Part shown: positions 10,881 through 13,443 of the stretch, piece by piece | How the letters are laid out: each line of letters opens with the position of its first letter | Position numbering within the stretch: position 1 is the first letter of the stretch | NCBI RefSeq assembly: GCF_003334305.1 | Contig: NZ_QOWS01000022.1 | Length of the DNA stretch: 64,000 nucleotides | Source: Escherichia coli | GTDB taxonomy: Bacteria; Pseudomonadota; Gammaproteobacteria; Enterobacterales; Enterobacteriaceae | Strand: one strand, 5' to 3' | Program-made: the position numbers and the translations under genes | The notes under the pieces: model-generated | What the model was told of the DNA's origin: nothing | Seen by the model: the letters and a program-made list of their open reading frames with translations, nothing else | The model's database searches: none

Positions 10881-11864
10881 ATGGCAACACGAATTGAATT
10901 TCACAAGCACGGTGGCCCGGAAGTACTTCAAGCCGTAGAGTTCACTCCTGCCGATCCGGCAGAGAATGAAATCCAGGTCGAAAATAAAGCCATCGGCATC
11001 AATTTTATCGACACGTATATCCGCAGCGGCCTTTACCCGCCGCCATCACTACCCAGCGGATTAGGTACCGAAGCGGCAGGCATCGTGAGTAAAGTCGGCA
11101 GTGGTGTAAAGCATATTAAGGCAGGCGATCGTGTAGTCTATGCGCAGTCGGCGTTAGGCGCTTACAGCTCTGTGCATAACATTAATGCGGATAAAGCGGC
11201 GATTCTGCCTGCGGCAATTTCTTTTGAACAAGCTGCAGCATCTTTCCTGAAAGGCTTAACGGTTTATTATCTGCTGCGCAAAACCTATGAAATTAAACCC
11301 GATGAACAGTTCCTGTTCCACGCAGCGGCTGGCGGCGTTGGCTTAATTGCCTGCCAGTGGGCAAAAGCCCTGGGCGCGAAACTTATCGGCACCGTAGGAA
11401 CCGCGCAAAAAGCGCAGAGCGCGCTAAAAGCCGGCGCGTGGCAGGTTATTAACTATCGTGAAGAGAATCTGGTCGAGCGATTGAAAGAGATCACCGGCTG
11501 TAAGAAAGTGCGCGTAGTGTACGATTCCGTGGGCAGAGACACCTGGGAACGGTCGCTGGATTGCCTGCAACGCCGCGGCTTAATGGTCAGTTTTGGCAAC
11601 TCATCAGGTGCGGTTACCGGTGTGAACTTAGGCATTCTCAATCAAAAAGGCTCGTTGTATGTGACACGCCCTTCCCTGCAAGGCTATATCACCACGCGGG
11701 AGGAATTAACCGAGGCCAGTAATGAACTGTTCTCTTTGATTGCCAGCGGTGTGATTAAGGTCGATGTCGCCGAGCAGCAGAAATATCCGCTGAAGGATGC
11801 GCAGCGTGCGCATGAGATTCTGGAAAGCCGGGCGACGCAAGGTTCCAGCCTGCTGATTCCATAA
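10881..11864 (+). CDS. qor: NADPH:quinone oxidoreductase (zeta-crystallin family)
   Basis: 327 aa from ATG at 10881 (MATRIEFHKHGGPEVLQ) preceded by GGAGGA; Rossmann motif AAAGGVG; ORF track over-extended 36 codons. Confidence 0.93.
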   Translation: MATRIEFHKHGGPEVLQAVEFTPADPAENEIQVENKAIGINFIDTYIRSGLYPPPSLPSGLGTEAAGIVSKVGSGVKHIKAGDRVVYAQSALGAYSSVHNINADKAAILPAAISFEQAAASFLKGLTVYYLLRKTYEIKPDEQFLFHAAAGGVGLIACQWAKALGAKLIGTVGTAQKAQSALKAGAWQVINYREENLVERLKEITGCKKVRVVYDSVGRDTWERSLDCLQRRGLMVSFGNSSGAVTGVNLGILNQKGSLYVTRPSLQGYITTREELTEASNELFSLIASGVIKVDVAEQQKYPLKDAQRAHEILESRATQGSSLLIP

Positions 11865-11870
11865 AAGAAA

Positions 11871-11903
11871 TAGGGCTTCCACCTGGGAAGCCCTTTCTTT
11901 TTA
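11871..11903 (+). terminator. rho-independent terminator downstream of qor
   Basis: 8-bp GC-rich stem GGGCTTCC/GGAAGCCC followed by TTTCTTTTT. Confidence 0.75.
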
Positions 11904-12029
11904 TAGTTCGGCTGTATGTAGGGTACAGCACGATGAATCTGTTAGAGGCGCAATAGTGACAGATTTGATTATCAATTCCTATTTTGTTCTAAGGATAAAA
12001 CCTTAGGTTGTGATCATCCGCACAATCCC

Positions 12030-12272
12030 TTAGTAACGCCAGCGGTCATAACGCTGATATTTCGGCACTTTTGGTGCTTTAATCGCCTTAATAACCCACA
12101 CCACCGCAATCGCCAGTAGTAACCACGGCAGCAACTTAATCATCAATGCCAGCATACCGCCGAGGAACATAATGGCCGTCGCCACAACCAGCGCGGCGAT
12201 AATGCCCAGCAACGAAACGCCGGTGACCATCAGCATGACAAAAAAGCCAAACACAAAAAGTAGTTCCAGCAT
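12030..12272 (-). CDS. pspG: phage shock protein G
   Basis: 80 aa from ATG at 12272 (MLELLFVFGFFVMLMVTGVSLLG...), two TM helices; ORF track over-extended into dusA. Confidence 0.85.
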   Translation of the reverse strand: MLELLFVFGFFVMLMVTGVSLLGIIAALVVATAIMFLGGMLALMIKLLPWLLLAIAVVWVIKAIKAPKVPKYQRYDRWRY

Positions 12273-12305
12273 GATGCTCTCCCAAATATGAAATCTCTTG
12301 CTGGC

Positions 12306-12324
12306 ATTACAAGAATCATGCCAA
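12306..12324 (-). promoter_or_regulatory. candidate sigma54 (-24/-12) promoter of pspG
   Basis: Minus-strand TTGGCATGATTCTTGTAAT (TGGCAT-N5-TTGTA) about 35 bp upstream of pspG start; pspG is known to be sigma54/PspF dependent. Confidence 0.5.
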
Positions 12325-12405
12325 AAATAATCTATTGATTTAACAGCAAAACGCCCCGCGACGGTGCGCAGGGCGTGGTGAATTTGACTACTTTTTGGTG
12401 AAAAG

Positions 12406-13443
12406 TTAACGCTTATCCGCCACCAGTTTGAGCGCGTGTTCCAGCACATTAATGTCTGCACCCGCTTTATGGGCATTTTCACTTAAATAACGCCGCCACT
12501 GCCGCGCGCCAGGAATACCCTGGAACAAGCCCAACATATGCCGGGTAATATGGCCGAGATACGTCCCCTGGCTGAGTTCACGCTCAATGTACGGATACAT
12601 GGCGCGCACTACCGCCACCGGATCGGCATCGGTATCCGAGGAACCAAAGATCTCCCGGTCTACCGCCGCCAGAATACCCGGATTCTGATACGCCTCGCGC
12701 CCGACCATCACGCCATCCATATGTTGCAGGTGTGCTTTGGCCTCTTCCAGCGACTTGATACCACCGTTAATCGACATTGTCAGATGCGGAAAGTCACGCT
12801 TCAGTTGATACACACGCGGATAATCGAGCGGCGGGATTTCACGGTTTTCTTTCGGGCTTAACCCCGAAAGCCAGGCTTTACGTGCGTGGATGATAAACAT
12901 CTCACACTCGCCTTTGCCGGAAACGGTGTTGATGAAATCGCAGAGAAATTCATAGCTGTCCTGGTCATCGATGCCAATACGCGTTTTCACCGTCACTGGA
13001 ATCGACACCACATCGCGCATCGCTTTCACGCAGTCGGCAACCAGCTGCGCATTACCCATCAGACACGCACCAAACATGCCGTTCTGCACCCGGTCAGACG
13101 GGCAGCCGACATTCAGGTTGATCTCATCATATCCGCGCGCTTCTGCCAGCTTTGCACACTGCGCCAGCGCCGCCGGATCGCTACCGCCGAGTTGCAACGC
13201 TACCGGATGTTCTTCTTCACTGTACGCCAGGTAATCACCTTTACCGTGAATAATCGCCCCTGTGGTCACCATTTCGGTATACAGCAACGTATTGCGGGAA
13301 AGCAGACGCAAGAAATAGCGGCAATGTCTGTCCGTCCAGTCGAGCATTGGTGCAACGCTAAACCGACCACTCCAGTGAACGTCAGTTTTTTCAGGCATTG
13401 CGCTGGTTTGGTTGATTTTTTGCATTTCAGAATTACCGTGCAT
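12406..13443 (-). CDS. dusA: tRNA-dihydrouridine synthase A
   Basis: 345 aa from first ATG at 13443 ([12 protein letters not shown]...); Dus family TIM-barrel; the true start may be further downstream. Confidence 0.85.

Follow-up and report, generated by a model that had tools for sequence, protein, structure and literature searches.

The gap between dusA and pspG on the Escherichia coli chromosome raises the question of whether pspG has a sigma-54 promoter of its own and of where such a promoter would lie with respect to the end of dusA. An initial annotation, made from the sequence alone, had proposed a sigma-54-type pspG promoter embedded at the dusA 3' end. The stretch of DNA analyzed here, 64,000 nucleotides long and referred to as the window, is E. 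coli chromosome in reverse complement relative to MG1655. Positions 12273-12405 were found to be the whole dusA-pspG intergenic region (133 bp), 100% identical to that of E. coli K-12 MG1655; 7 mismatches with MG1655 were counted over 1591 bp, none of them between 12273 and 12405, and each of the 5,426 complete E. coli genomes carries the region. The downstream gene encodes a protein identical to the 80-aa pspG product named PspG on more than 1000 contigs, and the GGGAGAG sequence ahead of its ATG is conserved in the pspG orthologs of the Enterobacteriaceae. Almost certainly, 12273-12405 is the complete pspG regulatory region, a sigma-54 promoter that depends on an enhancer and belongs to the phage-shock (Psp) membrane-stress regulon. 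The elements, their positions, conservation and phasing, and the match with the pspA upstream activator sites (UASs) come from the present analysis, and sigma-54 occupancy and PspF dependence are drawn from the literature.

Table 1. Features of the dusA-pspG region and other features of the window.
Feature	Position	Strand	Basis or remark
dusA CDS	13443..12406	minus	RefSeq/PGAP annotation of 100%-identical genome and MG1655 annotation
dusA stop codon TAA	12408..12406	minus	ORF list, PGAP annotation, MG1655 annotation
PspF enhancer (UAS), inferred, three half-sites CACCAA-aaa-GTAGTC-aaatt-CACCAC	12375..12400	minus	conserved block, pspA geometry, weight matrix
Putative dusA intrinsic terminator	12341..12376	minus	terminator scan, fold energy, covariation; between enhancer and IHF site
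IHF consensus site AATCAATAGATTA, perfect WATCAANNNNTTR	12328..12340	minus	pattern search; -43..-31
Sigma-54 core promoter TTGGCAT-GATTC-TTGTA	12308..12324	minus	sequence, ChIP-seq site OS40, orthologs
Predicted transcription start G	12297	minus	inferred from -24/-12 geometry, 12 nt after -12 T
Shine-Dalgarno GGGAG	12279..12283	minus	sequence; 6 nt ahead of pspG ATG
pspG CDS, 80 aa	12272..12030	minus	ORF list, PGAP, MG1655 annotation
Open 70-codon extension of pspG frame, non-coding	12273..12482	minus	ORF list; upstream open stretch varies in orthologs
Conserved block 1, TTCAC	-104..-100		
Conserved block 2, 17-bp dyad	12391..12375		-94..-78
Conserved block 3, both hairpin arms and the T-run after them	12376..12351 (arms)		
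Conserved block 4, ATCAA/TTA of IHF site	12340..12328		
Conserved block 5, core promoter	-27..-10		
Rfam matches	58870-59045, 29856-29926	minus	
Rfam matches	41301-41497, 39257-39406	plus	

The surroundings of the region can be described briefly. An Rfam scan of 11800-12700 returned no known RNA family. By coordinate transfer, the sRNA PspH (pspH, b4758, MG1655 4263139..4263249) falls at window positions 11863-11973 on the minus strand, just downstream of pspG, and its end is a bidirectional hairpin (11872..11894) common to the convergent gene qorA. PspH was reported to be a sponge of the sRNA Spf; it overlaps the 3' UTR of pspG and may be transcribed from a promoter of its own (PMC5145812). 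The gathering-level Rfam matches elsewhere in the window were three copies of naRNA4 (REP-derived), a lysine riboswitch, which presumably belongs to lysC, and STnc430, all ordinary for this part of the chromosome. Upstream of dusA, the 100%-matching RefSeq genome (strain 600468, L001 1-295) has a gene annotated as a frameshifted DUF2713 pseudogene, corresponding to ~13.8-14.8 kb of the window.

On the minus strand, the core motif TGGCATGATTCTTGTA occupies 12323..12308, with the -24 GG at 12322-12321 and the -12 GT at 12310-12309, and its TGGCAT-N5-TTGTA spacing is correct for the sigma-54 -24/-12 class (TGGCAC-N5-TTGCW). Exactly 35 bp (12307..12273) separate it from the pspG ATG at 12272, as the initial annotation had estimated. 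The same annotation had located the element inside the 3' region of dusA, which did not hold: the coding sequence ends at 12406, and the motif begins 83 bp downstream of the stop. Its description of the promoter as embedded at the dusA 3' end can be upheld for the 3' flank only, in that the enhancer begins 5 bp past the stop and the putative terminator lies in the regulatory region, but not for the coding sequence.

A sigma-54 element within the dusA coding sequence would be an intragenic site, a reading that draws on the overlap between dusA and the six-frame ORF containing pspG and on the abundance of intragenic sigma-54 sites in E. coli (PMC4591121). However, the dusA frame is closed at 12408..12406, well ahead of the motif, and the in-frame TAA excludes a C-terminally extended DusA. 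The motif also follows the dusA stop in all 45 orthologs that we compared, and Bonocora et al. place the pspG site among the upstream-of-gene sites, not the intragenic ones (PMC4591121). We thus regard an intragenic origin as highly improbable; indeed, both the annotation and the reading frame refute it. The intragenic sites described by Bonocora et al. in 2015 belong to the same motif family, but they are found within coding sequences and for the most part have neither an enhancer nor a known output, whereas the pspG site is intergenic, is accompanied by an enhancer and an IHF site, and has a gene downstream.

That pspG has a sigma-54-type promoter, as initially proposed, agrees with published data: the exact 17-mer TTGGCATGATTCTTGTA is the sigma-54 ChIP-seq site OS40, which is intergenic, in sense orientation and assigned to pspG (PMC4591121, Bonocora 2015). 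The published matrix score of the pspG site is modest (10.7), and pspG was among the few genes up-regulated by sigma-54 overexpression, with PspF as activator (PMC4591121). In Salmonella, the pspG sequence TGGCATGATTTTTGTAAG was a sigma-54 holoenzyme ChIP-chip site, for which the listed activator is again PspF (PMC3844500, Samuels et al. 2013). PspF is reported to bind UASs at both the pspA and the pspG promoter; induction of pspG is ~20-fold, and deletion of PpspG alters PspF dynamics (PMC3709507). The pspG transcription start is predicted at G12297 from the geometry of the promoter elements. Such a start would give a 25-nt leader, in agreement with the 'Distance 25' to pspG listed for OS40 in the table of Bonocora et al. 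(PMC4591121).

Taken by itself, the bare motif match is weak evidence and is not statistically remarkable in 64 kb: the pattern TGGCAY-N5-TTGYW occurred twice in the window compared to 0.36 expected, and at least two matches were obtained in 4 of 100 shuffles. The -12 element reads TTGT, compared to the TTGC of the consensus. One could thus suppose that the motif upstream of pspG is a chance match and that expression of pspG relies on dusA read-through or on a sigma-70 promoter, all the more since the second match lies inside a gene, aceB. We give this explanation very little credence. The motif goes far beyond chance because of its position, its conservation in 45 orthologous loci and the published ChIP data. 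It is deeply conserved along with an enhancer and an IHF site, a putative terminator is conserved between dusA and pspG, and no sigma-70-like promoter was found on the pspG strand within 11800-12700. Expression of yjbO (pspG) was reportedly found by Lloyd et al. in 2004 to be driven by sigma-54 RNA polymerase. In vivo occupancy by sigma-54 has been observed in both E. coli (PMC4591121) and Salmonella (PMC3844500).

The second sigma-54-like match, TGGCACATGGATTGCT, is located at 60906-60921 on the minus strand, in sense orientation inside aceB (ORF 62024..60405), and has consensus -24 and -12 elements; this string is absent from the main text of Bonocora 2015. The palindrome TGGCAT...ATGCCA (12323..12302), which overlaps the pspG core promoter, was evaluated as a dimer-binding site and rejected, its downstream arm not being conserved even within Escherichia.

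For the comparison across Enterobacterales, one genome per species was scanned with PspG, which yielded 45 loci from Escherichia, Citrobacter, Salmonella, Enterobacter, Lelliottia, Silvania, Yersinia, Rahnella, Brenneria, Serratia, Prodigiosinella and Pantoea. The direct upstream neighbor of pspG was dusA in every one of them. TGGCAY-N5-TTGT was kept in 42 of the 45 loci, the exceptions being C. werkmanii (TGTCAT), Entomohabitans (TTGA) and S. diarizonae (TTGC), and the nonconsensus T at -12 was conserved in 43 of 45 orthologs and is present in E. coli pspA as well. Information content calculated on an alignment of 33 Enterobacteriaceae species peaked in five noncoding blocks, listed in Table 1. 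Judged from these alignments, the predicted enhancer, terminator and IHF site are conserved together with the core promoter in the 45 dusA-pspG loci, with the hairpin placed otherwise in Brenneria.

Some individual loci deviate. C. werkmanii NBRC 105721 (L021 1950-1965) has lost the near-invariant -24 GG through the change to TGTCAT, and Entomohabitans teleogrylli (L033 1943-1958) carries its TTGA at -12; these changes may weaken or inactivate the pspG promoter, or they may be sequencing errors. The pspG leader is ~34 nt longer than in E. coli in Salmonella enterica subsp. arizonae and diarizonae (L011 ~1932-1990 and L022 ~1933-1990), owing to a G+C-rich palindromic, REP-like insert (…gagtagacccggtaagcgc.gt.ccgccgggca…) between the sigma-54 promoter and the ATG.

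An enhancer-dependent promoter would require binding sites for its activator some 70-150 bp upstream, and the initial annotation had proposed a scan for PspF UAS and IHF sites; both were found upstream of the core promoter, at 12400..12375 and 12340..12328, respectively. The putative PspF enhancer comprises a 17-bp dyad, GTAGTCAAATTCACCAC (GTAGTC-aaatt-CACCAC), at 12391..12375, that is, -94..-78 from the predicted start, and an extra upstream half-site, CACCAA, at 12400..12395, the two together spanning -103..-78. This block is conserved in 33 Enterobacteriaceae, and the same geometry was recovered in the 45 orthologs and at E. coli pspA. The arrangement R'(6)-N3-L(6)-N5-R(6), or 6-3-6-5-6, was fixed across all loci lined up, as illustrated by the arrays of Brenneria (GACTAA-ctg-TTAGTC-gtttt-GACTAA) and E. 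coli pspA (CGCCAC-ttg-TTAGTG-taatt-CGCTAA). R' agreed with the R half-site of the same locus at 4.2 of 6 positions, compared to 1.3 of 6 for spacer control 6-mers. The distance from the dusA stop to the dyad was 11-26 bp in all clades, usually 13-14 bp, so that the enhancer adjoins the dusA end throughout.

From 26 distinct dyads outside Escherichia we derived a weight matrix, which ranked 12391..12375 first in the 64-kb window with 20.6 bits, compared to 15.3 bits for the runner-up; shuffled sequence gave maxima of 14.0 bits on average and 19.5 bits at most. On the 2.5-kb pspF-pspA locus, the same matrix picked TTAGTGTAATTCGCTAA (L002 1432-1448) and ATGATGAAATTCGCCAC (1412-1428), both intergenic, at positions that we take to be those of pspA UAS I and II. 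Elsewhere in the window, a palindromic match at 56560..56576 scored 15.3 bits and was dismissed as lying inside the range of shuffled maxima. These comparisons point to upstream activator sites for pspG at -103..-78, where PspF binding is predicted; the roles of the individual half-sites are likewise predicted, from comparison between loci. The third half-site, CACCAA, is conserved in every clade and completes a 6-3-6-5-6 array like that of pspA UAS II/I. If pspA UAS II is taken as the model, the final dusA codon and the stop (CGTTAA, 12411..12406) would form a degenerate fourth half-site. Mehta 2013 counts 'one UAS' at pspG (PMC3709507), compared to the three conserved half-sites seen here, and our search of the literature for pspG UAS positions found nothing more precise than 'one UAS'.

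Directly after the dyad, a hairpin (ACGCCCTGCG-cacCGT-CGCGGGGCGT) extends over 12376..12351 and is followed by the tail TTTTGCTGTT. Its stem has 10 bp, of which 8 are G-C pairs, and the TTTT tail provides a short T-run; the fold energy was -20.3 kcal/mol (z = -2.6). Among 33 species, 97% of cells in the hairpin alignment were paired and compensatory changes affected 7 of the 10 pairs, a covariation that none of 500 shuffles equaled and that no slid register matched. The hairpin is best read as the intrinsic terminator of dusA, a function predicted from its structure and covariation. If so, dusA transcription would cross the PspF sites and halt before the IHF site and the core promoter. Hairpin and T-run follow the dyad directly in Yersinia, Rahnella and Serratia too. 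Brenneria had no hairpin directly after the PspF dyad; in this genus (L038, L040-L044), an IHF consensus lies within a 10-11-bp inverted repeat (tcgctgataa-ATCAATAAG-ttatcagcga) ~30-60 bp upstream of TGGCAC, which may reflect a merger of the dusA terminator with the IHF site.

Between the enhancer and the pspG core promoter lies the IHF consensus site AATCAATAGATTA. Its ATCAA and TTA columns are conserved and its four middle bases are free, which corresponds to the IHF pattern WATCAANNNNTTR, and the site scored 7-9 of 9 in all 44 orthologs scored. The bare consensus was not enriched in the window (5 matches compared to 2.8 expected), and thus only positional conservation counts. Not only is the site present in the other clades, but its helical phase is kept. 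Between the center of the dyad and the -24 GG, Enterobacteriaceae have 61-63 bp, Brenneria, Serratia and Prodigiosinella 70-72 bp, and Yersinia and Rahnella 83 bp, in steps of ~11 bp or about one helical turn, and the distance from the IHF site to TGGCA shifted in step in the same clades from 17-19 bp to 27-28 bp (~10 bp). As far as spacing in the alignments can tell, this stepwise phasing is as predicted for DNA looping with face-of-helix constraints. Another perfect IHF consensus in the window, TATCAATAAGTTA, lies at 62148-62160 on the minus strand, ~125-135 bp upstream of the aceB start; aceBAK is known to be regulated by IHF.

The initial annotation had also pointed out that the pspG reading frame runs 70 codons further upstream into dusA and would mislead annotation, and both points were borne out. 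A GTG-started 150-aa ORF (12482..12030, minus strand) consists of the 80-aa pspG plus 70 upstream codons and overlaps the final 77 nt of dusA. The exact 150-aa sequence is on record under the name 'phage shock protein G' (EGJ06527.1), a 148-aa version comes from a 'Myoviridae' MAG (DAF58539.1), and a 139-aa version has been deposited as 'yjbO' and is found on 40 contigs (KGM63259.1). Open codons and deposited entries could be taken to mean that a long PspG is indeed made from the GTG inside dusA, which would render TGGCAT coding. This has a negligible probability in our judgment. Among orthologs, the frame stays open for anything between 4 and 70 codons ahead of the pspG ATG, with 70 seen only in the window and in L006, and conservation across it is of a noncoding type, without 3-nt periodicity. 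The extension contains the promoter, the covarying terminator hairpin and the conserved GGGAG Shine-Dalgarno ahead of the ATG, and because of this content and the variation among orthologs we conclude that it is not coding. Curated annotation (PGAP, MG1655) uses the 80-aa form, the one present on the more than 1000 contigs. The 148-150-aa 'PspG' entries (12033-12482 translation) share a 90%-identity cluster with full-length DusA (345-aa representative) despite the different frames; this co-clustering is probably an artefact or results from bridging by a frameshifted fusion entry.

Put together, these elements suggest the following scheme as the most likely one. RNA polymerase-sigma-54 would bind TGGCAT-N5-TTGTA (12323..12308) as a closed complex, and the AAA+ activator PspF would occupy the enhancer at 12400..12375, centered near -86. 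IHF, by bending the DNA at 12340..12328, would bring PspF to the polymerase. Membrane stress would then free PspF from inhibition by PspA, and its ATP hydrolysis would open the promoter. Transcription would start near G12297 and yield the 25-nt leader with its GGGAG Shine-Dalgarno, from which the 80-aa PspG would be translated. The founding paper, that of Lloyd et al. 2004 (JBC 279:55707), is said to have described dependence of yjbO (pspG) on sigma-54, PspF and IHF together with repression by PspA.

The pspG sigma-54 promoter is thus already known and experimentally characterized, and the locus studied here is the same as the E. coli K-12 pspG (yjbO) promoter, with an identical intergenic sequence, the same 17-mer and the same 25-nt distance. 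To the K-12 description, our analysis adds the CACCAA half-site (12400..12395), the nested dusA terminator and the clade-wise helical phasing. The extra enhancer half-site and the terminator nested in the promoter region may be undescribed so far; they are modest refinements.

When the sequences upstream of pspG and pspA were aligned globally as a pair, the promoters fell out of register, the pspG -24 being matched to an upstream TGGCATG of pspA, and the comparison of the two was therefore anchored on motifs. E. coli pspA shares with pspG the same -12 variant (TGGCAC-GCAAA-TTGTA), the 6-3-6-5-6 enhancer, the activator PspF and a paralogous IHF-like sequence, AATCAAAAAGATA, at the same place just upstream of -24. 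The two differ in that the pspA dyads lie at ~-127..-91, compared to -103..-78 for pspG, and that the pspA IHF site is 6 bp from TGGCA with one consensus mismatch, compared to 4 bp at pspG. Moreover, the pspA enhancer overlaps the divergent pspF start, whereas that of pspG adjoins the end of a codirectional gene, and pspA has no terminator in the loop. Induction is ~100-fold for pspA, compared to 20-fold for pspG (PMC3709507). Salmonella Typhimurium pspG has the orthologous sequence bound by sigma-54 holoenzyme (PMC3844500), which differs from that of E. coli by one spacer base. Salmonella arizonae and diarizonae show the dusA-pspG arrangement of E. coli but differ by the ~34-bp leader insertion and, in S. 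diarizonae, by the consensus TTGC at -12.

As a discovery the promoter matters little, since the PspF regulon, with its two promoters, is textbook knowledge in the bacterium that has been studied best. The use of the analysis lies in correcting the location of the promoter, which is intergenic and not in the dusA coding sequence, in documenting a spurious 150-aa ORF in public protein databases, and in providing a base-resolved, phylogenetically supported map that runs from the predicted enhancer half-sites through the nested dusA terminator and the IHF site to the core promoter. Such a map could help to design mutations in a model promoter of the enhancer-dependent type. A more speculative reading, which we advance only tentatively and consider rather doubtful, is that the pspG enhancer is more elaborate than 'one UAS' and that the loop between enhancer and promoter retains the dusA terminator. 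If this arrangement were functional, dusA transcription would pass over the PspF sites before terminating, and dusA expression or its termination efficiency could be coupled to the inducibility of pspG, for example through transcriptional interference with PspF occupancy or through insulation of the sigma-54 closed complex.
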